The position numbers and the translations under genes are program-made. Shown piece by piece: positions 4,952 to 16,325 of a stretch of DNA of 64,000 nucleotides (its first letter is position 1; each line of letters opens with the position of its first letter). The notes under the pieces are model-generated. The model searched no databases, was not told where the DNA came from, and was given only the letters and a program-made list of their open reading frames with translations. The DNA is from Dehalococcoidia bacterium (GTDB lineage Bacteria > Chloroflexota > Dehalococcoidia > Lucifugimonadales > UBA3495), in the NCBI GenBank assembly GCA_963664375.1, contig OY761449.1, positions 2,315,087-2,379,086 on the forward strand. Reading direction: 5' to 3'.

Positions 4952-5953
4952 TTACCTTGTCAAAGCATGCCTGGGATTGGGGTGCTGCAAAACCGCCGGA
5001 TTAACCAGGTTGTCCGGCATTTCTCCATGCATCACCTTTACTACTTCGGCTGCAGCCCTCTGTTCCAACTCCAGCGTTGACTCCTGGGAGAAAAAAGCGA
5101 CGTGAGGAGTAATGATGACGTTTTCCAGCGCCAGCAACGGATGCTCCCGCGACGGAACGTTATCTACCATCACGTCCAGCCCGGCCCCGGCAATAACGCC
5201 GTTAGCGAGCGCGGCGTAGAGCGCCTCCTCGTCAATCAGTGGGCCACGGGCCGCGTTAATCAGGAACGCCTCCCGCTTCATCGCCGCCAGTTCGTCCCGG
5301 CCAATCATGTTCCGGGTCTCGTCGGAGAGAGGGGTGTGCAATGAAACAAAATCGGATTCGCCCAGCAGTTGGTCCAATTCAACGAGTGAACCGCCGAAGG
5401 ACTCAACAGTTGCGGAATCGACGAAAGGGTCTGCGGCCAGTATGTTCATCCCGAAGGCCCGCGCCTTGCTGGCCACGGCTTGCCCTATCCTGCCAAACCC
5501 GACGATTCCGATGGTCTTTCCCCGCAGCCGCATCATGCGCATGGTGAGCGGCTGGCTGCCCCACCCGCGTTCCTTGACCGACCGGTCGAACAGCACGATC
5601 TTCCGATTCCAGGCATGCAACAGCGCCATCACGTGGTCGGATACCTCGTCGACGCAGTAGTCCGGCACGTAGGTAACGGCGATTCCCAGTTCGGTGGCCG
5701 TGGCGACGGCAATGTTGTCCACCCCGACGCCGAAACGGCCGATGACCTGGCATCGCTCGGCGGCGCGGACGACGTTCCCGGTGACCTGGGCGAAACAGGT
5801 CATGATTGCATCCGCGTCGCGGGCAAGGCCAGCCAGCGTCTCCTCGTTGCCGTCGGGTGCCACGGCAACCTCGGCCCCACCGGCCTCAAGCACGGCTCTT
5901 TCCGGGTCAGTGCTGGGCCACACGTAGTCGGTGATTAGGACTTTCCAGGTCAT
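4952..5953 (-). CDS. D-isomer-specific 2-hydroxyacid dehydrogenase (NAD-binding)
   Basis: GIVGFGRIGQAV dinucleotide motif, INAARG and ITPHVAF catalytic region. Confidence 0.9.
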   Translation of the reverse strand: MTWKVLITDYVWPSTDPERAVLEAGGAEVAVAPDGNEETLAGLARDADAIMTCFAQVTGNVVRAAERCQVIGRFGVGVDNIAVATATELGIAVTYVPDYCVDEVSDHVMALLHAWNRKIVLFDRSVKERGWGSQPLTMRMMRLRGKTIGIVGFGRIGQAVASKARAFGMNILAADPFVDSATVESFGGSLVELDQLLGESDFVSLHTPLSDETRNMIGRDELAAMKREAFLINAARGPLIDEEALYAALANGVIAGAGLDVMVDNVPSREHPLLALENVIITPHVAFFSQESTLELEQRAAAEVVKVMHGEMPDNLVNPAVLQHPNPRHALTR

Positions 5954-5977: not shown

Positions 5978-7612
5978 TCAGTGCTGGGTGCCGCGGTTGA
6001 ACTCGCGAGGCATGGGCTTGAACATGCACCCTTCCACGAAAATCTCGAAGAAATCCGGGGTGGTCTCCAGTTCAACATGCTCGACACGCCGCACAAGGTC
6101 CTCGGCCCGCCGCCGCGAGTCCTGGGACAGGAGCATCATCGTTGCGCCCTCAAGCGCGGCGTTGCCAGCCCGGGCGACGCGTTCCTCCGGGAAATTGGCG
6201 ACGAACCCGATGGCCATTGCATTGGAAACGTCCAGGTAGTTGGCGAAGCCGCCCGCGAGGTAGAGCCGCGATATGTCCTCCACTGGCCGTCCGTACTTTC
6301 GCAGGGTGATGAATTGCCCGCAATAGTTGGCCGACTTCGCCTGCGCCAGGGCACTGATGTCGGCGCGGGAGAGACCCATCCCCTTCTCCGGCGCAAAAAC
6401 GTACTCTCTGGCCCCGTCTTCGAATGCTCCCAGCTCGTTCATCAATCCACCGGCCCGAAGCTCGTGCAGCAGGTCTACCAGCCCGGAGCCGCATATCCCT
6501 TGCGCCTCAGCCCCGCCAATGGTGGACACCTGCGGGCGGCCATCTCGGATGCGAACGGACTCCACCGCGCCGTCGTAGCCTGCCATGCCGTGGGTGACCT
6601 GCCCGCCCTCGAAGGCGGGGCCAGCCGGGCACGACGCGGAGACCATGGCGTGCCGGTTGCCGATGACAACCTCCGTGTTGGTGCCGATGTCCACCAGCAT
6701 CACCGGCTCCTCCTGCTCGTCCATGCCGATGGCCAGGAGGCCGGCGGCCACGTCGGCCCCCACGTGGCTCGCGATGAGCGGCCCCCCGTACACGTGGGCC
6801 TTCGGGAATATCCGCAGCCCCACGGCCTGAGCGCTGGATTGCAGGGAAGTGCCGGTTCGCTCGCCCGCCTCCCATTCCAGCTCGATGGAAGACTTGTAGG
6901 GCTTGACACCCACCGGCTGAACGTTGACGCCGAAGGCGATGTCCCGCATGGTGGTGTTGCCCACAATAACGGCGCTGTAGATCTGGCGCCGTTGAACATT
7001 CAGTTGCCGGATCATTTCGCCTATTTCGAAATTGATCGCCGAGATAATTGCGAGCCTTAACTCGCCCCGGTTTCTCCCGGCGTCGTAGGAAATCCGGTTC
7101 ATGACATCGCTGCCACCGAATTTCTGAGGGTTTTCAAATGAGGACGTAGCGATGATCTCCCCGGATTCCAGGTCGGCCAGGTTAATTGCCACCGTAGTGG
7201 TGCCTATGTCGGCGGCCAATCCCAGTATCCGGCCCCGGTAGATGTCAACCGGCTGGCCGCCGATGGTCACCTCGTCGCCATCGCGCCGGACATGCGGGGC
7301 AAGTTCGACCGCCCGCCGTATGCCCTCGGTGAGGATGCGCGGCTGGCGGCGCAGGACGCTGAACTCTATGGTCTCGGACGGGTCAGCGACGATTGCCTGG
7401 CAGGCAAGCCGGAAGTTGCCGGAAAGAAAATACTCGTCCCGGGAGTTAGGGAACAGTCCCTCCATCCCGCTACGCACCTCCACGATGCACTCGTGGCAAC
7501 TCCCGCCCCTGCCGCAGGAGGTGGGCACGCGCACGCGCAGATGATCGGCGTAGTCGAAGAGCGACTTCCCGCGATGGGCCTGGATTTCATGTCCATTCAA
7601 TATCACTGGCAT
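5978..7612 (-). CDS. Corrinoid reductive activase (RACo/RamA-like ASKHA ATPase with an N-terminal 2Fe-2S ferredoxin domain)
   Basis: CGRGGSCHEC...LACQ plant-type ferredoxin motif, then the ASKHA signatures ADIGTTTV and VDIGTNTE. Start set to ATG 7612 (MPVILNG) rather than TTG 7633. Confidence 0.85.
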   Translation of the reverse strand: MPVILNGHEIQAHRGKSLFDYADHLRVRVPTSCGRGGSCHECIVEVRSGMEGLFPNSRDEYFLSGNFRLACQAIVADPSETIEFSVLRRQPRILTEGIRRAVELAPHVRRDGDEVTIGGQPVDIYRGRILGLAADIGTTTVAINLADLESGEIIATSSFENPQKFGGSDVMNRISYDAGRNRGELRLAIISAINFEIGEMIRQLNVQRRQIYSAVIVGNTTMRDIAFGVNVQPVGVKPYKSSIELEWEAGERTGTSLQSSAQAVGLRIFPKAHVYGGPLIASHVGADVAAGLLAIGMDEQEEPVMLVDIGTNTEVVIGNRHAMVSASCPAGPAFEGGQVTHGMAGYDGAVESVRIRDGRPQVSTIGGAEAQGICGSGLVDLLHELRAGGLMNELGAFEDGAREYVFAPEKGMGLSRADISALAQAKSANYCGQFITLRKYGRPVEDISRLYLAGGFANYLDVSNAMAIGFVANFPEERVARAGNAALEGATMMLLSQDSRRRAEDLVRRVEHVELETTPDFFEIFVEGCMFKPMPREFNRGTQH

Positions 7613-7701
7613 GGTGGCATTGTAGCAAATCAAGAGACAGAGTCAGCTACGGCAAGGGATTCCCAGCAGGACGGTTGCAATTTCTTTCTCCCGGCCCCGA
7701 A

Positions 7702-7742
7702 TTCCCTCCCCCTTGAGGGGGAGGGTTAGGGTGGGGGTGAAA
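7702..7742 (-). repeat. REP-A element
   Basis: ttccctcccccttgagggggagggttagggtgggggtgaaa, intergenic. Confidence 0.9.
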
Positions 7743-7761
7743 TTGCAGCGAAGAGAGTTCC

Positions 7762-8025
7762 TCAGGCACTCCCGTCCATTTCCCATGCCGAGCGGTAGTC
7801 GAGGTTGTCGTCGCCGGTGCAGGGATAGAGTTCGCCCTCCGGGGCGGAGCGGTCCTGGTTGCGGCAGCCGAACCGGGCCGTGCAGAGGTTCTGGGCGTTC
7901 TTGTAGGGGCAGCGGTAGGTGGATACCACGTTCACCGTGTCGGAAATGCCGCGGAATATTTCCGTAAGGCGCTCGACGCTCCGGAGGTAGCGCTCCGGAT
8001 CGGCCTTGGGCCGCTCATCAGCCAT
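7762..8025 (-). CDS. Small Cys-containing protein of unknown function (87 aa)
   Basis: Starts 4 nt after the corrinoid-protein stop on the same strand. Four Cys residues (C-x10-C-x5-C-x17-C). High third-position GC in frame. Confidence 0.6.
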   Translation of the reverse strand: MADERPKADPERYLRSVERLTEIFRGISDTVNVVSTYRCPYKNAQNLCTARFGCRNQDRSAPEGELYPCTGDDNLDYRSAWEMDGSA

Positions 8026-8028
8026 GGG

Positions 8029-8787
8029 TCAGTCCGCGACCGCCGCAGTCTCTACGCCCGGCTGGGCGACGAACTCCTTGGCCAGGTCGACGCAGGCGAT
8101 GGCGTCCTTGCCGTAGCCGTCGGCGCCCATGTCGTCCGCGAACTCCTGCGACAGCGGCGCGCCGCCGACCATGATGCGCACTTCGCCGCGCAATCCCGCC
8201 TCCTCGAACGCCTCGATGGTGCGGCCCATGTTGGGCATGGTGGTGGTCAGCAGCGCCGACATTCCCAGGATGTCCGCCCCCTTGTCCACCACTTCGTCGA
8301 TGAACTCGTCGGGCTGGGTGTCAACGCCCAAGTCATGCACCACGAAACCGGCGCCGCGCAGCATCATGATGCAGAGATTCTTGCCGATGTCGTGCAGATC
8401 GCCCTTCACCGTGCCCATGACCACCGTGCCGATGGGCTCGATCCCGGAAGCCGACAGGATAGGCTCGATATGCGCCATTCCCGCCTTCATCGCCCGCGCC
8501 GCTACCAGCACTTCCGGCACGAAGATTATGTTGTCCCGGAACTTGATGCCCACGATTGCCATCCCCGAGATCAGCCCGTCGTCCATGATGGTGTTGGCCG
8601 AAAACCCGTCCTCGAGGGCTTGCAGCGTCAGCCGGTCCACTTCAATGTTCTGGCCGGTGATGAGCTGGTAGGAAATCTCCTGCATCATCGGGTCGGCTTC
8701 ATCCCACAGGGCGCGAATGTGGCGCTGCTCATCGGGATTCTCGACGTGTGCCAGTTCCGATTCCAGTCCCTCGTGAACGACGGGCAT
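8029..8787 (-). CDS. Corrinoid (cobalamin-binding) protein of a methyltransferase system
   Basis: B12-binding DxHxxG motif (GDLHDIGKN), SALLTTT and MVGGAP motifs, and an N-terminal helical cap domain. Confidence 0.9.
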   Translation of the reverse strand: MPVVHEGLESELAHVENPDEQRHIRALWDEADPMMQEISYQLITGQNIEVDRLTLQALEDGFSANTIMDDGLISGMAIVGIKFRDNIIFVPEVLVAARAMKAGMAHIEPILSASGIEPIGTVVMGTVKGDLHDIGKNLCIMMLRGAGFVVHDLGVDTQPDEFIDEVVDKGADILGMSALLTTTMPNMGRTIEAFEEAGLRGEVRIMVGGAPLSQEFADDMGADGYGKDAIACVDLAKEFVAQPGVETAAVAD

Positions 8788-8839
8788 TTGACTACCTCTC
8801 GTTTGTCTAAATCAGGTGGGAAGTTCCGTAGTTGGGGAG

Positions 8840-8879
8840 TTCACCCCCACCCTAACCCTCCCCCTGAGGGGGAGGGAAT
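8840..8879 (+). repeat. REP-A element
   Basis: ttcacccccaccctaaccctccccctgagggggagggaat, lying between two co-oriented operon genes. Confidence 0.9.
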
Positions 8880-8920
8880 TTCGTTGCCGCTGCATTCAAA
8901 TTTGCAAGTCCCTTTATGAT

Positions 8921-9955
8921 TCAGACGTTCAACTCAGTCCAGTCCTTGACCGCTTGCGGGATAGCCATCAGGTTCTCGATCTTGGTTGCCAGCGGCACGG
9001 CGCACTCCGGCGCGATCATCTGCACCCCGGCGTCGAGGCAGCGGTACACCTCCTGCCGCACCTGTTCCGGGCCGCGGGCGTAGAGCGTCTCCGGGTTGTT
9101 TATGTTGCCCACCAGCCCGATCCCGCCATCGACGGCGGCCATGGCCTCATGCGGGTCGTTCTTTGAATCGAAGTGGAAGGATGCCATGCCGGTCTGAGCG
9201 ATGTAGGGCATGCGGTCAATGGTCTTGCCGCAAATGTGCAGGATCAGGGGGACTTTGAGCCGCTCGGCCATTTCAGCGTGAATGTCTTGCAGGAACCGCC
9301 GGTAGTAGTCGCCGCTGACCAGGTCGCCGGTGGCATGGTCGGGGAAGGTGAGGGCGTCGGCCCCGGCGTCGATCTGTGCCTCGCCGAACAGCACCGACAG
9401 TTCCTTCAGCTTGTGCATGGCGCGCATGGTCTCGCCGGGGTTGTCAACCGTGCCCAGCAGGAAGGGCTCCACGCCGAAGACGTGGTACCCCAGCGTCCAC
9501 GGCCCCATGGTCTTGCCGATGATGGCCACTTCGTCGCCGAACTCCGCCTTGAGCTGGCGGATGGAGCCGGTGATAGCCAGCATGTCGCGGTGTTCCAGGA
9601 TACCCGGAGGAATATGCACGTCGTCCGCCGTCTTCCAGATGGGCCGGTACATGCGGACGGTCGGCCAGTTGTCCTTGTCCTCCCATTGCATCTCGCAGCC
9701 CAGCGCCGACGATTCCTGGATGATGCTGAAGTACGGCATGATCGAGTCGAAGCCCAGCTCGGTGTATCCCGTTGCCGCCAGCCGCGCCGCCAGCTCCGGT
9801 TCCTGGCAGGCTTGCGGAAACGGCGCGTCCACCAGGTCCATCAGCTCCACTGTGGCCACGTTGGTCGGGTTCGCCACCGGCGTCCGGTCAACGGGCTGCC
9901 GGTTCAGCGCCGCCATAGTGCGCTCCCGCGGCGTCATCGTCTCAACAAAAGCCAT
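8921..9955 (-). CDS. Uroporphyrinogen decarboxylase (URO-D)/MtaA-CmuA family methyltransferase
   Basis: 344 aa. Length and overall pattern fit MtaA/MtbA-type or O-demethylase MT-I-type corrinoid methyltransferases, and the gene is adjacent to the corrinoid protein. Confidence 0.75.
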   Translation of the reverse strand: MAFVETMTPRERTMAALNRQPVDRTPVANPTNVATVELMDLVDAPFPQACQEPELAARLAATGYTELGFDSIMPYFSIIQESSALGCEMQWEDKDNWPTVRMYRPIWKTADDVHIPPGILEHRDMLAITGSIRQLKAEFGDEVAIIGKTMGPWTLGYHVFGVEPFLLGTVDNPGETMRAMHKLKELSVLFGEAQIDAGADALTFPDHATGDLVSGDYYRRFLQDIHAEMAERLKVPLILHICGKTIDRMPYIAQTGMASFHFDSKNDPHEAMAAVDGGIGLVGNINNPETLYARGPEQVRQEVYRCLDAGVQMIAPECAVPLATKIENLMAIPQAVKDWTELNV

Positions 9956-9967
9956 GGCTGCGCCTCC

Positions 9968-10291
9968 TTATGGTGGGTAGATTCGGACTACCTGGCCCCT
10001 CTCCGGTTCATCCAATGCCCGCAGTGCTTCCGGCAATAGAGGTAAGAGATGCTCCAAACCGTTGGTCTGGCCGCGTAGGACTATTATACGAAGATTCAGC
10101 CTGGCGAGATTCTGCTGGCTGGGTATGCTCCTGTCGCAGGTTATCATTGCGTCGAATTCGTGCTGAGCGATAGGGAGAAATTCTCCGTCCAGCCAGCTTT
10201 TCCATCCCATGTAACGCGCGGTACGAACTTCATGACCTTGAATGAAGAATCGAAGGTTTTCCGGGACGGATTCATCCAGATACAGCCGCAT
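9968..10291 (-). CDS. DUF5615-type PIN-like toxin
   Basis: The MRLYLDESVP...ITCDRS pattern is typical of the PIN-like partners of DUF433 antitoxins. It overlaps the upstream gene by 20 nt. Confidence 0.65.
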   Translation of the reverse strand: MRLYLDESVPENLRFFIQGHEVRTARYMGWKSWLDGEFLPIAQHEFDAMITCDRSIPSQQNLARLNLRIIVLRGQTNGLEHLLPLLPEALRALDEPERGQVVRIYPP

Positions 10292-10922
10292 GGAATTCCC
10301 GCTCCAATGCCTCGCCTGCTACCACTACCGTATTCACCAGTTGCGCCGGGTCAGCCGATGAAAAGCTGAAGCGGAAGTCCTTCAGTGTCTTCCCTTCCGC
10401 CAAATGTTGGAACATAAAGATTAAGGGCAGCCGAGTTCCGATAAACACAGGGGATCCACTGACCCTCCCGCGGTCACTGTGAGCTACACCGTTTTCCTTG
10501 CCACGGTAAGCCTCCAGTTCCAGAATCCTGCCAGCCGTCAATACCGCGTCATACGTGTCCTCAAGAAATGTATCTGGGAAATCCCAATGAAAATCTTTCA
10601 GACTCTTTAAGTCGGCGAGATAATCGAACATGCGCTTGACCGGCACATCCGACCGCTCGAACACCAGCGCCCCGTCCGCGATTTCCTCATTCCTTTCGAT
10701 GATGCGCTTCGTCTTTTCCCGGGCGTCCCGCTCCAGTTCGGCCAGCGCCTGCTCCATGGACACGGACGGGAACTTGTGCAGGAAGCCGTACACGTTCCAG
10801 TCGCTGCGCAGATAAGCGTGCAGCTCTTTGATGGAGATTTCAGTCCCATCAAAAAGCGGTGATTCTTCTGCGGCCGCGTTCCTCTTATTTGCAATGCTGT
10901 CCGTACTCACGTCCATCTCCAT
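10272..10922 (-). CDS. DUF433-like antitoxin with three tandem DUF433-type modules
   Basis: Three repeats of the pattern (F/V)xGTxI/RxPhxxhxxYL/HLxxGxxhxDFxxxFP: FDGTEISIKELHAYL.., FERSDVPVKRMFDYLADLKSLKDF.. and FIGTRLPLIFMFQHLAEGKTLKDF.. Confidence 0.6.
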   Translation of the reverse strand: MEMDVSTDSIANKRNAAAEESPLFDGTEISIKELHAYLRSDWNVYGFLHKFPSVSMEQALAELERDAREKTKRIIERNEEIADGALVFERSDVPVKRMFDYLADLKSLKDFHWDFPDTFLEDTYDAVLTAGRILELEAYRGKENGVAHSDRGRVSGSPVFIGTRLPLIFMFQHLAEGKTLKDFRFSFSSADPAQLVNTVVVAGEALEREFHAAVSG

Positions 10923-10928
10923 TTCAGT

Positions 10929-11606
10929 TTACGTCTGCGAGAAGCCCAGCGTTCCGGTGGTCATCTGGCCGCGCAGGGCCTCGGCGGCCATCATGGTTTC
11001 TACGCTGGAGATGTTGCGGGAGTAGGGCAGCAGCACCCGCATCAGCGCGTCGTGGGGCATCCCGCAGGCGAAGGCTACTCCCGACTCGCCCACCTGCTCC
11101 ATCTCGCCGTAGCGGGTGAAGCCGGCCAGCACCATCCGCAGCCGCATGGCCGCGTTGCGCGCCTCGCCGTCCAGCGACACGTCGTACACCGAGCGGCCTT
11201 CGCGCTCGCTGTCCGCCAGCGTGGCCCGGATGGTCAGCGCCGACTTGGAGTCCTGGATCGACAGCTCCCCTTGCGGCGGGGCGTAGTCCGGTGCCTTGCC
11301 CACCGCCTGCGACATCACGAAACGCAGTGTGCGCTGGTGCAGGCGGCCGCACGGGAATCGCACCTGGTTGTGCGAATCCCCGACTACTTCCATGCCGCCG
11401 AGCGCGATCATCTGGTCGCGTATCTCCCGGACGCGCTCCCCCACGCCTTCGCGTCGGCTGAACGTCCAGATGGTGCAGACGCCGTCCTTGACGTACAGCC
11501 CCACGCTGATGTCGTGGAAACGCCGGTCCAGCGGCACCAGTTCGAGGCACTGCCCGTAACGCTCGATGACTTCCGCTGGTCGCAGCTTTCCGGTAGTTGT
11601 GGCCAT
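10929..11606 (-). CDS. Hypothetical protein (225 aa), co-transcribed with the homocysteine S-methyltransferase gene
   Basis: Start is 8 nt after the upstream stop. Strong GC3 coding signal. No motif recognised. Confidence 0.6.
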   Translation of the reverse strand: MATTTGKLRPAEVIERYGQCLELVPLDRRFHDISVGLYVKDGVCTIWTFSRREGVGERVREIRDQMIALGGMEVVGDSHNQVRFPCGRLHQRTLRFVMSQAVGKAPDYAPPQGELSIQDSKSALTIRATLADSEREGRSVYDVSLDGEARNAAMRLRMVLAGFTRYGEMEQVGESGVAFACGMPHDALMRVLLPYSRNISSVETMMAAEALRGQMTTGTLGFSQT

Positions 11607-11614
11607 TGCGCCCC

Positions 11615-12526
11615 CTAGCGGCCGACTGCCGAGGCCAGTGCGCGGATGTGTTCCGGCCCGGTGCCGCAGCAGCCGCCGATGATGTTCACGCCTAGATCGG
11701 CCAATTCCCTGAACCGTTCCGCCATGTATTCCGGCGATTCGGGATAGACAATCTCACCGCCCCGCATGGCCGGGATTCCGGCGTTGGAGTGGATGAGCAG
11801 AAACCCGTCCGTTTCCCCTCGCATTCGACGGGCGATGTCCAGCATGTTGTCAATGCCGTTGCCGCAATTGGAGCCGACGACGTGCGCCCCGGCGTCCTCC
11901 ATGGCGTGAACTGCGGCCTCCGGCGTGATGCCCATCATGGTGAAGAAGCCGCGTGGCCCCTTGTCGAACACCATCGTCGCCATCACGACCAGGCCCGTAT
12001 TCTCGCGGGCCGCCCGGACTGCCAGCGCCGCCTCCTCCGCGGCCGTCATGGTCTCCACCACAACGGCGTCTGCGCCGCCAGCCTCCAGCGCCTTGACCTG
12101 AACCGAAAAAGCGTCATACATCTCCGATTCCGACACCGGCCCCAGCGGCTCCAGGAACTCCCCGGTCGGCCCGACCGAGCCGACGACGAATCGCCCCTCC
12201 GGCGCCTGGCTGCGGGCGTGTTCGGCGGCCAAACGGTTGAACTCGGCGACCCGTTCCGCGTAGCCGTATTTCTTCTGCATGAACACGGTGCCGCCGAAGG
12301 AATTGGTCAGCGCCATATCCGACCCGGCCTCAAAGTACCGGCGGGCCATCTCCCGCACCACATCGGGATGGCTGGCGTTGAACTCCTCGGGGCAGCCGCC
12401 CGGCTCCAGGCCGTGCTGTTGCAGGAACGTGCCAGTTGCCCCGTCGGAGACCAGCAGCCCGCCGGAGCGCAGCCGCGCCAGCAACGCCTGTGGGCCAGTA
12501 AGAGCGTTTTCAGTATTAGCGGTCAA
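11615..12526 (-). CDS. Homocysteine S-methyltransferase domain protein (MetH N-terminal-like, Zn-dependent)
   Basis: DGATGT, SNCGNG and GGCCGTGPEHI motifs (Zn-ligand cysteines). TTG start, with no in-frame ATG before the conserved N-terminus. Confidence 0.85.
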   Translation of the reverse strand: MTANTENALTGPQALLARLRSGGLLVSDGATGTFLQQHGLEPGGCPEEFNASHPDVVREMARRYFEAGSDMALTNSFGGTVFMQKKYGYAERVAEFNRLAAEHARSQAPEGRFVVGSVGPTGEFLEPLGPVSESEMYDAFSVQVKALEAGGADAVVVETMTAAEEAALAVRAARENTGLVVMATMVFDKGPRGFFTMMGITPEAAVHAMEDAGAHVVGSNCGNGIDNMLDIARRMRGETDGFLLIHSNAGIPAMRGGEIVYPESPEYMAERFRELADLGVNIIGGCCGTGPEHIRALASAVGR

Positions 12527-12642: not shown

Positions 12643-12672
12643 CCGTCATTCCGGTTTTCGCCGGAATGACGG
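12643..12672. repeat. Family-B minimal hairpin (CCGTCATTCCGG-TTTTCG-CCGGAATGACGG)
   Basis: Perfect 12-bp stem. The arms are identical to the ends of the family-B elements at 13389-13493 and 59632-59726. Confidence 0.8.
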
Positions 12673-15060: not shown

Positions 15061-15143
15061 TTTTTGGCTTTGTGCCGCCGCCGTCCGTGTGGTTAAATTG
15101 CCGCACTCCATACGAGAAACTGAAACGCGGGAGGCGGCCCGTC

Positions 15144-16325
15144 ATGACCAGCTATCTGTCTCACCTGGAATGCACCATCTGCGGCGCAGAGTACCCGGCC
15201 AACCGGCTGTCCGGCGTCAGCCCGTGCTGCGGCAAGGTGCTCTACGCCCGCTACAACCTCGACCGTATCCGGGCCGAAGTTGACCGCGACCGCTTGTCCG
15301 CGAGAACGCCCAACATGTGGCGCTTTCAGGAACTGCTGCCCGTCGATGACCCCGGCAACATCGTGTCCCTCGGCGAGGGCGGCACTCCCTTGATCGAGGT
15401 GAAGAATCTGGGCGAAAAGCTCGGCGTCTCGAACCTTTTTGTCAAAGAGGAAGGGCTGAATCCCACTGGCACGTTCAAGGCTCGGGGCATCGCCGCCGCA
15501 ATATCAAAAGGGCTGGAACTGGGCGCTGCCGGGTTCACCATGCCGTCGGCGGGCAACGCCGCCGGGGCCGCCGCCGCCTACTGCGCCCGCGCCGGGCTGA
15601 CCGCCAAGGTGTTCATGCCGCAGGACGCTCCCGATTCCAACAAGAAAGAGTGCCTCGTAGCCGGTTCCGAGCTGAACCTGGTCGACGGCCTGATCGGCGA
15701 CGCTGGACGGATAGCGGTTACGGTGGCCCAGGAGCAGGGCCTGTTCGACCTCTCGACGCTGAAGGAGCCGTACCGCGCCGAGGGCAAGAAGTCCATGGGG
15801 CTGGAATTGGCGATGCAGTTCGGCTGGCGCATGCCCGAGGCCATCATCTACCCCGCCGGGGGCGGCACCGGCATCATCGGCATGCACAAGGGTTTCCTGG
15901 AGTTGCTGGAGCTGGGCTGGATCGAGGGCGACCTGCCCAAGTTCATCGCCGTCCAGGCCGACGGGTGCCAGCCCATTGTCAAGGCGTTCAACGAAGGCAA
16001 GGACACCGCCGAGCCGTGGCAGAACGCCGCCACCGTCGCCGACGGCCTGCGGGTGCCCGGCCCGTTCGCCGACTACCTGATGCTCCAGGCAATCCGCGAG
16101 ACCGGCGGCACGGCCCTGGCCATATCCGACGCCGACATGGTAGCTGCCATGTACGAGCTGGCCACCGCCGAGGGCATCTTCGCCTGCCCCGAGGGCGCGG
16201 CCACCCTGGTCGGCTACAAGCGCCTCATCGACGAGGGATTCCTGCGCCGCGACGAGACCACGGTACTGTTCAACACCGGCTCCGGCTACAAATACCTGCA
16301 ACTCATCGATGGCATGAGCGTCTAG
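15144..16325 (+). CDS. thrC: Threonine synthase
   Basis: N-terminal zinc-ribbon-like CTICGAEY..CC, the PLP lysine motif NPTGTFKARG, and the GNAAGAAAAY and GGGTGIIG motifs. ATG 15144 with a GGGAGG RBS. Confidence 0.9.
   Translation: MTSYLSHLECTICGAEYPANRLSGVSPCCGKVLYARYNLDRIRAEVDRDRLSARTPNMWRFQELLPVDDPGNIVSLGEGGTPLIEVKNLGEKLGVSNLFVKEEGLNPTGTFKARGIAAAISKGLELGAAGFTMPSAGNAAGAAAAYCARAGLTAKVFMPQDAPDSNKKECLVAGSELNLVDGLIGDAGRIAVTVAQEQGLFDLSTLKEPYRAEGKKSMGLELAMQFGWRMPEAIIYPAGGGTGIIGMHKGFLELLELGWIEGDLPKFIAVQADGCQPIVKAFNEGKDTAEPWQNAATVADGLRVPGPFADYLMLQAIRETGGTALAISDADMVAAMYELATAEGIFACPEGAATLVGYKRLIDEGFLRRDETTVLFNTGSGYKYLQLIDGMSV

Follow-up and report, generated by a model that had tools for sequence, protein, structure and literature searches.

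A 64,000-nucleotide stretch of the genome of a Dehalococcoidia bacterium (Chloroflexota; Dehalococcoidia; Lucifugimonadales; UBA3495; contig OY761449.1, positions 2,315,087 to 2,379,086; here termed the window, in whose coordinates features are given) carries on its minus strand a cluster of genes for corrinoid-dependent methyl transfer. The genome, referred to as G000, is 3.9 Mb in size and comprises the complete contig C1. A listing of open reading frames (ORFs), combined with Pfam and NCBIfam profile searches of the window, identified genes for a stand-alone homocysteine S-methyltransferase (HcyMT; 11615-12526; PF02574, 226.7 bits), a 225-residue protein of an undescribed family (unk225; 10929-11606; no family match), a zinc methyltransferase of the URO-D/MtaA family that resembles MtaA and CmuA (UROD; 8921-9955; URO-D, 213.5 bits), a corrinoid (B12) carrier protein (CoP; 8029-8787; B12-binding PF02310, 94.2 bits, and B12-binding_2 PF02607, 63.6 bits), an 87-residue cysteine protein (Cys87; 7762-8025; no Pfam or NCBIfam family) and a RACo/RamA-type ATP-dependent reductive activase with an N-terminal 2Fe-2S domain (RACo; 5978-7633; RACo_C_ter, 222 bits, Raco_middle, 137 bits, and Fer2, 37 bits). 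These searches bore out every gene that a preliminary description of the DNA, made from its letters alone, had placed on this strand. We assign a probability of roughly 0.6 to the view that the cluster represents, in SAR202/Dehalococcoidia, a split cobalamin-dependent methionine synthase of the hub type, whose carrier protein is loaded in this genome by UROD and unk225.

A conserved operon under purifying selection

A scan with the UROD alignment, restricted to one genome per species, returned 566 relatives, the best 80 of which were used for comparisons of loci and belong to Dehalococcoidia, SAR202 and sponge-associated metagenome-assembled genomes (MAGs). The order HcyMT-unk225-UROD-CoP-Cys87-RACo is kept in approximately 70 of these 80 loci. 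Close relatives display the arrangement HcyMT-unk225-(variable ORF)-UROD-CoP-Cys87-RACo followed by a gene for a D-2-hydroxyacid dehydrogenase (2HADH), and the same order is present in distant Chloroflexota, in which unk225 is only 35-53% identical while UROD and CoP still display approximately 70% identity. As the order recurs in close relatives, in distant Chloroflexota and in most of the 80 loci, HcyMT-unk225-UROD-CoP-Cys87-RACo is a conserved operon and not a chance arrangement; the comparison of synteny across related genomes, which the preliminary description had proposed, thus revealed strong conservation. Within a sample of 121 genomes from the order to which the window belongs, UROD is present in 61.

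All the genes of the cluster are intact in G000 and are under strong purifying selection. When computed against the closest related loci, at dS values of 0.5-2.1, dN/dS was 0.014-0.054 for UROD, 0.04-0.08 for CoP, 0.06-0.14 for HcyMT, 0.06-0.31 for unk225, 0.05-0.2 for Cys87 and 0.08-0.16 for RACo. In one metatranscriptome, contigs that are 88-92% identical extend over RACo, CoP and UROD, and a single 1.2-kb contig spans unk225 and HcyMT; this points, if only weakly, to transcription of the operon in a related strain. Scanning for promoters and terminators yielded no decisive signal. In metagenomes, homologues at 83-99% identity number in the hundreds for each of HcyMT and unk225.

A further gene, encoding a 110-residue PF13769 (‘Virulence factor') protein, is the immediate upstream neighbour of HcyMT in roughly 50 of the 80 loci (L043-L105, and L022 at 11241-11582). 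Neither G000 nor any of the 17 loci most closely related to it has this gene, and no degenerate copy was found upstream of HcyMT in the window.

The homocysteine module is of the corrinoid-dependent type

Among the NCBIfam models, HcyMT scores best on PRK07534 (248.8 bits, cut-off 338), which is named betaine--homocysteine S-methyltransferase, followed by the YitJ model (243.4 bits) and MetH (176 bits), while on the MmuM model PRK09485 it reaches 72.2 bits against a cut-off of 215. The closest solved structures are the homocysteine (Hcy) domains of MetH, and the cysteines of the SNCG and GGCCG motifs align with the zinc ligands of Thermotoga maritima MetH (1q7m), such that the Zn-Cys3 site is intact. 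The ‘Bhmt' of S. meliloti has been reported to be homologous to MtgE, the Hcy module of a split B12 methionine synthase (PMC12478193), and the match to PRK07534 therefore fits an MtgE-like identity. The sequence data thus support the assignment of HcyMT as a corrinoid-dependent, MtgE-like Hcy module. The preliminary description had considered that the protein could instead belong to a clade dependent on S-methylmethionine or betaine, which is at odds with the proximity of the MetH-domain structures and with PRK07534 and MmuM scores that both fall below their cut-offs.

MeTr and full-length MetH do not occur together

In locus L102, and in many other genomes of the order, an additional gene, MeTr, is located between UROD and CoP. 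In the 1.3-Mb genome G324 the arrangement is MTHFR-like-MeTr-PF13769 (113 residues)-HcyMT, followed by the rest of the operon, and MeTr is a 351-residue pterin-binding methyl-tetrahydrofolate (methyl-THF):corrinoid methyltransferase (PRK07535, 202 bits). MeTr, CoP, HcyMT and RACo together represent every module of a cobalamin-dependent methionine synthase, as separate proteins. Within the order sample MeTr is present in 44 of the 61 UROD-positive genomes and in none of the 60 that lack UROD; an HcyMT orthologue occurs in 60 of the former (absent from one) and in two of the latter (absent from 58). Full-length MetH was identified in 29 genomes, ten of which are UROD-positive. MeTr and full-length MetH were never found together; the UROD-positive genomes comprise 44 with MeTr only, ten with MetH only, seven with neither and none with both. 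This mutual exclusion is the pattern expected if MeTr, CoP, HcyMT and RACo replace MetH. Three streamlined, cluster-bearing genomes (G324, G159 and G300) contain no MetH and no MetE-family gene, and the cluster together with MeTr appears, from the predicted functions, to be their only recognisable methionine synthase.

Basically, the cluster is the published MtgCDE type of split MetH hub, to which one extra methyltransferase has been joined. The preliminary description had spoken of an ‘unusual component set' and of a split, MetH-independent route to methionine. A reading of the set as novel in its own right is not supported, as relatives contain MeTr inside the cluster (in G324 together with the MTHFR-like gene), and MeTr and MetH do not co-occur.

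The search of the order also revealed other candidate methionine synthases. Single-domain PF01717 ORFs of some 340-370 residues, which resemble core MetE, are common, with up to seven in a genome (for example C1:2535445-2536512 in G000). Strong copies, at approximately 261-279 bits, are present in four UROD-positive genomes that lack both MetH and MeTr (G527, G565, G570 and G583). These ORFs could be further corrinoid-protein-dependent methionine synthases. Five UROD-positive genomes (G529, G540, G584, G592 and G618) encode a distinct, long MetH of 1270-1330 residues, which scores about 210-216 bits on PF00809 compared with about 150 bits for the enzyme of G000; the same PF00809 search yielded no separate match to dihydropteroate synthase (DHPS) in these five. 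The complete (99%) genome G557 contains HcyMT copies at C1:1757904-1758794 and C1:2467321-2468199 in addition to a UROD cluster, and the searches of the order sample detected no MetH, MeTr or MetE-family gene in it. G557 is therefore a candidate either for an obligate route from UROD to HcyMT or for methionine auxotrophy.

UROD is the only candidate loader in the genome of the window

MeTr is absent from G000 and from G625, a relative in the same genus; both belong to the group of ten UROD-positive genomes in which MeTr is lacking and a canonical MetH is present. Only two pterin-binding ORFs are present in G000, a DHPS (295 residues; TIGR01496, 302 bits) and the canonical MetH of 1225 residues, which lies some 71 kb outside the window. 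As one is DHPS and the other a full-length MetH, a pterin-type partner elsewhere in the genome was rejected. An MttB/MtgB-type loader was similarly rejected, as the MttB family (PF06253) has no match in G000 or in 13 other cluster-bearing genomes; G625 likewise contains no gene of this family. The statement in the preliminary description that the window encodes neither an MttB-type enzyme nor a pterin-type methyl-THF partner can thus be extended to the entire 3.9-Mb genome. A pterin-type partner close to the window, which that description had set against its own proposal, is not encoded in G000; MeTr is, however, located inside the cluster in many relatives. Whole-genome searches found no second UroD-family gene and no second RACo gene in G000, and the only other B12-binding matches in the genome were the B12 domain of MetH and one weak match of 28% identity.

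To our knowledge, enzymes of the HcyMT family are known only as homocysteine methylases. With only HcyMT and UROD beside it, CoP needs one of the two as its loader in order to turn over, which makes UROD a candidate loader; indeed, as there is no pterin-type or MttB-type partner, UROD is the only candidate for this role in G000. With the folate module gone, the putative methyl entry point of the system is isolated from the folate branch, and the genome represents a natural test case.

UROD contains a thiol-type zinc site

The UROD protein falls only 1-6 bits short of the cut-offs of the MtaA/CmuA-family models PRK06252 (242.7 bits, cut-off 244) and TIGR01463 (229.6 bits, cut-off 235.4), and is also below those of MtaA_Meth (213 bits, cut-off 400) and MtbA (191 bits, cut-off 600). 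It matches MtaA (4ay7) with an E-value of 1.7e-44 and about 156 bits, and its LHICG...APECA segments align with the zinc site of that enzyme, the ligands being His240-x-Cys242...Cys318; these three residues are invariant in the UROD alignment. UROD is the most conserved protein of the cluster, with 66-73% identity across phyla even where unk225 displays only about 30%. Within the UroD superfamily a His-Cys-Cys zinc sphere marks methyltransferases acting on sulfur or selenium (PMC10418091), while O-demethylases have carboxylates in place of the cysteines (PMC10418091) or lack zinc (PMC10418091, PMC13222342). The retention of the His-Cys-Cys sphere in UROD, without carboxylate replacement, argues against an O-demethylase methyltransferase I (MT-I). 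Thus, the preliminary description of UROD as ‘O-demethylase-like' is not supported; its zinc sphere is that of thiol and selenol methyltransferases.

Two further observations relate to this gene. Tandem UROD duplicates are located by the cluster in G571, G575, G576, G612 and G613, the second copy being 65-68% identical, which suggests diversification of substrate specificity. Orphan copies, at 80-82% identity, occur in about ten loci from sponge MAGs (L051, L052, L058-L060, L065, L066, L068 and L069). The neighbours of these orphans (an HIBADH-like dehydrogenase, a TPP enzyme and RecQ) gave no functional clue; in L051 UROD is positioned between the genes for the HIBADH-like dehydrogenase and the TPP enzyme and has an open frame that continues upstream by about 130 codons.

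The unk225 protein and the portable core

No match to unk225 was found in Pfam, NCBIfam or the sequences of the PDB. The family is small, with 187 representatives among 1.84 billion proteins at E <= 1e-3. The protein contains two internal repeats, each with the motif F-x-C-G-x-x-H, in which the pairs C86/H90 and C181/H185 hardly vary, and its C-terminal tail is conserved. Although the AlphaFold2 model is of high confidence (pLDDT 91.3, pTM 0.85), a Foldseek search of the PDB returned no significant match (best E-value 0.21, TM-score about 0.2).

In all three distant members for which the context is readable, unk225 is directly upstream of UROD. In the two of these loci with enough downstream sequence CoP and the activase follow, and HcyMT is absent. 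Locus L107 displays the layout unk225-UROD-CoP-RACo-MeTr, which is the classical MT-I/CoP/activase/MT-II arrangement, MT-II being methyltransferase II. Thus unk225-UROD-CoP-RACo is a portable core. As this core occurs with MeTr and in the absence of HcyMT, UROD, with unk225 as its likely working partner, can be seen as the substrate-side enzyme, while HcyMT appears to be an acceptor that was added in SAR202.

The carrier protein, its activase and Cys87

CoP contains the motif DLHDIG, of the DxHxxG type, and is approximately 70% identical in distant clusters. RACo scores 318 bits on the AcsV model, and as its relatives are 540-544 residues in length the ATG at 7612 is the likely true start. In Cys87 four cysteines are invariant (C39, C48, C54 and C69; pattern RCPY..CTAxFxCxNQ..C..DYRxAW), while the AlphaFold2 model is poor (pLDDT 58). 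A segment homologous to Cys87 (43% identity) is fused to the N-terminus of the 650-residue RACo of L107, and on this basis Cys87 is probably a detached accessory domain of the activase, likely to bind metal. In alphaproteobacteria DUF1638 co-occurs with the RamA-like activase (PMC5764234). A search of 16 cluster genomes for DUF1638 (PF07796) gave no match in any of them, the gene being absent from both G000 and G625; Cys87 or unk225 may fill its place.

Downstream of RACo is 2HADH (4952-5953, minus strand; 2-Hacid_dh_C, 207 bits), which occupies this position in roughly half of the related loci. This frequent downstream neighbour is at most a candidate associate of the system. The threonine synthase gene (15072-16325) and the other upstream neighbours are conserved in close relatives only and were ruled out as parts of the system.

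An inserted gene pair and a high-copy palindrome

Two genes between unk225 and UROD lie outside the system. One encodes an antitoxin-like protein with three DUF433 stretches (10272-10922, minus strand; DUF433, 54.7 bits) and the other a PIN-like/DUF5615, toxin-like protein (9968-10291, minus strand; DUF5615, 21.3 bits, and PIN_10, 21.0 bits, both just below the cut-offs). At the pair the G+C content dips to 0.545. A paralogous pair exists elsewhere in the genome, the PIN-like paralogues displaying 41% and 34% identity. The pair is missing from distant Chloroflexota loci, in which unk225 directly adjoins UROD, and close relatives contain a different ORF, of 103 or 129 residues, at its position. 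As the genes are missing from this position in relatives, the toxin-antitoxin pair is a strain-specific insertion in a spacer that often takes up extra genes; its description as ‘inserted' in the preliminary account was correct in the light of the G+C content, the distant loci and the alternative ORFs. A metatranscriptome contig of about 88% identity covers positions 10582-10920, and related strains therefore also carry a copy of the antitoxin-like gene.

REP-like, G+C-rich palindromes are located in intergenic spacers of the operon. One copy occupies the RACo-Cys87 spacer (7700-7742), a reverse copy is in the CoP-UROD spacer (8840-8880), and there is a further copy at 12643-12672; their sequences read ATTCCCTCCCCCTTGAGGGGGAGGG... 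and CGTCATTCCGG...CCGGAATGACGG. In metatranscriptome and metagenome contigs these palindromes coincide with spikes in depth of 280-955x in the RNA run and 3000-6400x in another run. As the spikes reach hundreds to thousands, the palindromes are a high-copy element of the lineage of the window.

Discussion

The component set described here is similar to characterized hubs in which several methyltransferases share one corrinoid protein. A three-part MetH with a RamA-like activase (DUF4445, now RACo_C_ter) is present in Phaeobacter and Desulfovibrio (PMC5764234). In the MtgBCDE system of Ruegeria pomeroyi one corrinoid protein serves the substrate enzyme MtgB, the bidirectional pterin enzyme MtgD and the Hcy module MtgE, and approximately 70% of the carriers of this hub are without MetH (PMC12478193). 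The cluster and the roseobacter systems (Ruegeria pomeroyi, Phaeobacter inhibens) have in common a stand-alone, PRK07534-like PF02574 Hcy module, a stand-alone corrinoid hub protein, a RamA/RACo (DUF4445) activase that replaces the PF02965 reactivation domain, an extra substrate methyltransferase that shares the corrinoid protein, carriers that mostly lack MetH, and aerobic marine hosts; the stand-alone pterin methyltransferase is present in the relatives of the window but not in G000 itself. In contrast with MtgBCDE, the extra methyltransferase of the cluster is an MtaA-like UroD zinc enzyme accompanied by unk225, and not the MttB-family MtgB; DUF1638 is lacking, the four-cysteine Cys87 is located beside the activase, and the genes form one operon. 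G000 differs further in having no pterin module while containing a canonical MetH.

Other systems resemble the cluster in part. MtaA/MtbA and MtsA/MtpA of Methanosarcina share with UROD the URO-D fold, the His-x-Cys...Cys zinc site, a separate corrinoid protein and a RamA-type activase; the host of UROD, however, is bacterial and aerobic, and UROD is accompanied by a homocysteine module as well as by its 225-residue partner. The type 1 mlp clusters described by Kountz and Balskus (PMC10418091) contain MtaA-like His-Cys-Cys proteins, a corrinoid protein and a RACE activase, have a proposed methyl-sulfur or methyl-selenium substrate and, like the cluster of G000, include no folate methyltransferase. 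Their definition requires Mlp2 plus Mlp3 as a minimum, their hosts are obligate anaerobes and their distribution follows the use of selenium (PMC10418091), whereas the present cluster combines one UroD-family gene with an Hcy module and unk225 and is not associated with selD. The core methionine synthases MesA, MesB and MesC embody the same concept, the methylation of homocysteine from a methyl-corrinoid protein, bypassing methyl-THF (PMC7857596, PMC7005905), but are MetE-type enzymes (PF01717) of strict anaerobes, while the Hcy enzyme of the cluster is of the MetH type (PF02574). The chloromethane systems CmuAB and CdmBCA also contain a UroD-family MT-I and a corrinoid carrier, with a pterin MT-II (PMC13222342); CmuA, however, is fused to its corrinoid domain, CdmB is zinc-free and close to the O-demethylases, and neither is accompanied by an Hcy module or unk225. 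A search of the literature returned no description of this cluster in SAR202 or Chloroflexota; relative to the papers covered, the SAR202 version, the MtaA-like/unk225 module and Cys87 appear to be undescribed.

In the mechanism that we propose, CoP would cycle between Co(I) and methyl-Co(III), and HcyMT would transfer the methyl group from methyl-CoP to homocysteine, yielding methionine. RACo would use ATP to return Co(II) to Co(I), with Cys87 serving as its detached accessory domain. In most relatives MeTr, which is MtgD-like, would tie CoP to methyl-THF, and the set would then replace MetH. In the lineage of the window a canonical MetH may have been gained or retained, with loss of MeTr and the PF13769 gene. 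In this lineage UROD, with unk225, would demethylate a small methylated compound and load CoP, which HcyMT would unload onto homocysteine; the result would be a folate-independent, salvage-type route to methionine. Thus the operon of G000 probably makes methionine from a non-folate methyl donor. The preliminary description had suggested that the URO-D enzyme loads the corrinoid and that the methyl group passes to homocysteine without folate. For G000, which has no other loader, this remains the best reading; the system as a whole, however, is a split MetH hub, the folate module of which has been lost in G000.

As the preliminary description had stated for the substrate, the identity of the methyl donor cannot be read from the sequence. 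Enzymes of the MtsA/MtpA type load from methyl-thioethers (bioRxiv 10.1101/548461), the substrates of MtsA and MtpA being methanethiol, dimethylsulfide (DMS) and methylmercaptopropionate. The thiol-type zinc site of UROD and the marine habitat favour a methyl-sulfur donor, and our best guess is a methyl-thioether or methylthiol such as one of these compounds. As UROD reaches 229.6 bits on the MtaA/CmuA model, close to its cut-off, the sequence also makes methyl halides possible donors. We tentatively put forward a more specific proposal, in which UROD and unk225 would constitute a new two-protein methylthiol/methyl-thioether:corrinoid methyltransferase of aerobic ocean bacteria. In this enzyme unk225 would be a subunit with a 2Cys/2His metal site, and methyl groups from methanethiol, DMS or methylmercaptopropionate would be directed to methionine and, where MeTr is present, to the folate pool.

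It could be argued that UROD acts on the acceptor side, as an MT-II like MtaA and MtbA, such that methyl-CoP (charged from methyl-THF by MeTr in the relatives) methylates a thiol or sulfide, possibly to make a methylthio metabolite or to detoxify sulfide or methanethiol. Methylcobamide:CoM methyltransferases are indeed the nearest characterised relatives of UROD, MeTr is its neighbour in many relatives, and pterin enzymes of the MtgD type are bidirectional (PMC12478193). In G000, however, which lacks MeTr, the cluster would then have to run from a methionine or sulfonium donor through a reversed HcyMT, or be largely idle. No Hcy-domain enzyme is known to demethylate methionine, relatives of the MtsA/MtpA type act as loaders, and a UROD limited to the acceptor side leaves unexplained why G000 and G625, which have no MeTr, keep the cluster under strong purifying selection; we consider the acceptor role to be unlikely. 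Decidedly improbable, in our judgement, is the proposal that UROD, unk225 or both are maintenance factors (for cofactor loading, for protection of Co(I) in an aerobe or as stand-ins for DUF1638) and not substrate methyltransferases. DUF1638 is missing from all 16 cluster genomes searched, no sampled genome contains MeTr without UROD, and the paired Cys/His motifs of unk225 would suit metal binding. Set against these observations are the full catalytic zinc triad of UROD, its position as the most conserved protein of the cluster, and the occurrence of the unk225-UROD-CoP-RACo core with MeTr but without HcyMT, as a consequence of which the core is not tied to methionine synthesis.

Two other explanations have very little probability. 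HcyMT could be a corrinoid-independent enzyme, dependent on betaine or S-methylmethionine, that stands beside a corrinoid system by position only. This is the function for which its top NCBIfam model is named; the sub-threshold scores on that model (248.8 bits against 338) and on MmuM (72 against 215), the reinterpretation of the S. meliloti Bmt as MtgE, which supplies the Hcy module in a corrinoid hub (PMC12478193), the near-perfect co-occurrence of HcyMT with UROD and CoP, and an exclusion between MeTr and MetH of the kind expected if HcyMT, CoP and MeTr replace MetH make it highly improbable. Equally remote is the view that the system demethylates dimethylselenide or methylselenol to supply selenium, as in the type 1 mlp clusters, and that homocysteine takes up the methyl groups. 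Although a His-Cys-Cys sphere fits selenols too, Mlp2 methylates selenide (PMC10418091), and G000 makes selenoproteins (SelD with an in-frame TGA, and a UGSC selenoprotein some 13 kb away), selD is present in 105 of the 121 genomes of the order regardless of UROD. Among the cluster-bearing genomes, G159 and G300 have no selD, and in G324 the only match is below the cut-off. As there is no association of selD with the cluster across the 121 genomes, a selenium role was rejected; the single UroD-family gene also differs from the Mlp2 and Mlp3 pair that defines type 1 clusters. SelD itself (C1:2454982-2455902 in G000) contains one in-frame TGA and is hence a selenoprotein, as in nearly every genome of the order.

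It should be emphasized that several points weigh against the split methionine synthase with UROD as loader. The roles of all SAR202 components are predictions from sequence, and the direction of transfer by UROD follows solely from the lack of another loader in G000, while its closest characterised relatives, MtaA and MtbA, are unloaders that methylate a thiol. MetH is already present in the genome, and the need for a second route to methionine is not obvious. About ten related loci contain UROD with no other cluster gene within 9 kb. The phyletic counts are uncorrected for shared ancestry and depend on MAGs and on sorting MetH by the length of its open frame, most pairs have a dS close to saturation, and the RNA evidence consists of assembled contigs of a related strain, in which DNA carry-over is possible.

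Few bacterial lineages are as abundant as SAR202 in the dark ocean and in sponge microbiomes. The operon is present in half of the sampled genomes of the order and is apparently the sole methionine synthase in streamlined ones. If the split methionine synthase is confirmed, the logic of one corrinoid protein serving several methyltransferases, established in marine roseobacters, would reach another phylum, and the dependence of ocean bacteria on B12 would be broader than thought. Two families without a described function, the Cys/His protein unk225 and the four-cysteine accessory of the activase, would be tied to a B12 system, and the MtaA-like enzyme would represent an unrecognised entry of a methylated compound, probably organosulfur, into methionine. 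Should the more tentative proposal of a methylthiol-specific UROD-unk225 enzyme also prove correct, the system would add a hitherto unrecognised sink to the marine organosulfur cycle and would provide, beside MtgB, a second kind of hub partner, through which SAR202 bacteria and sponge symbionts would draw methyl groups from dissolved methanethiol, DMS and methylmercaptopropionate.

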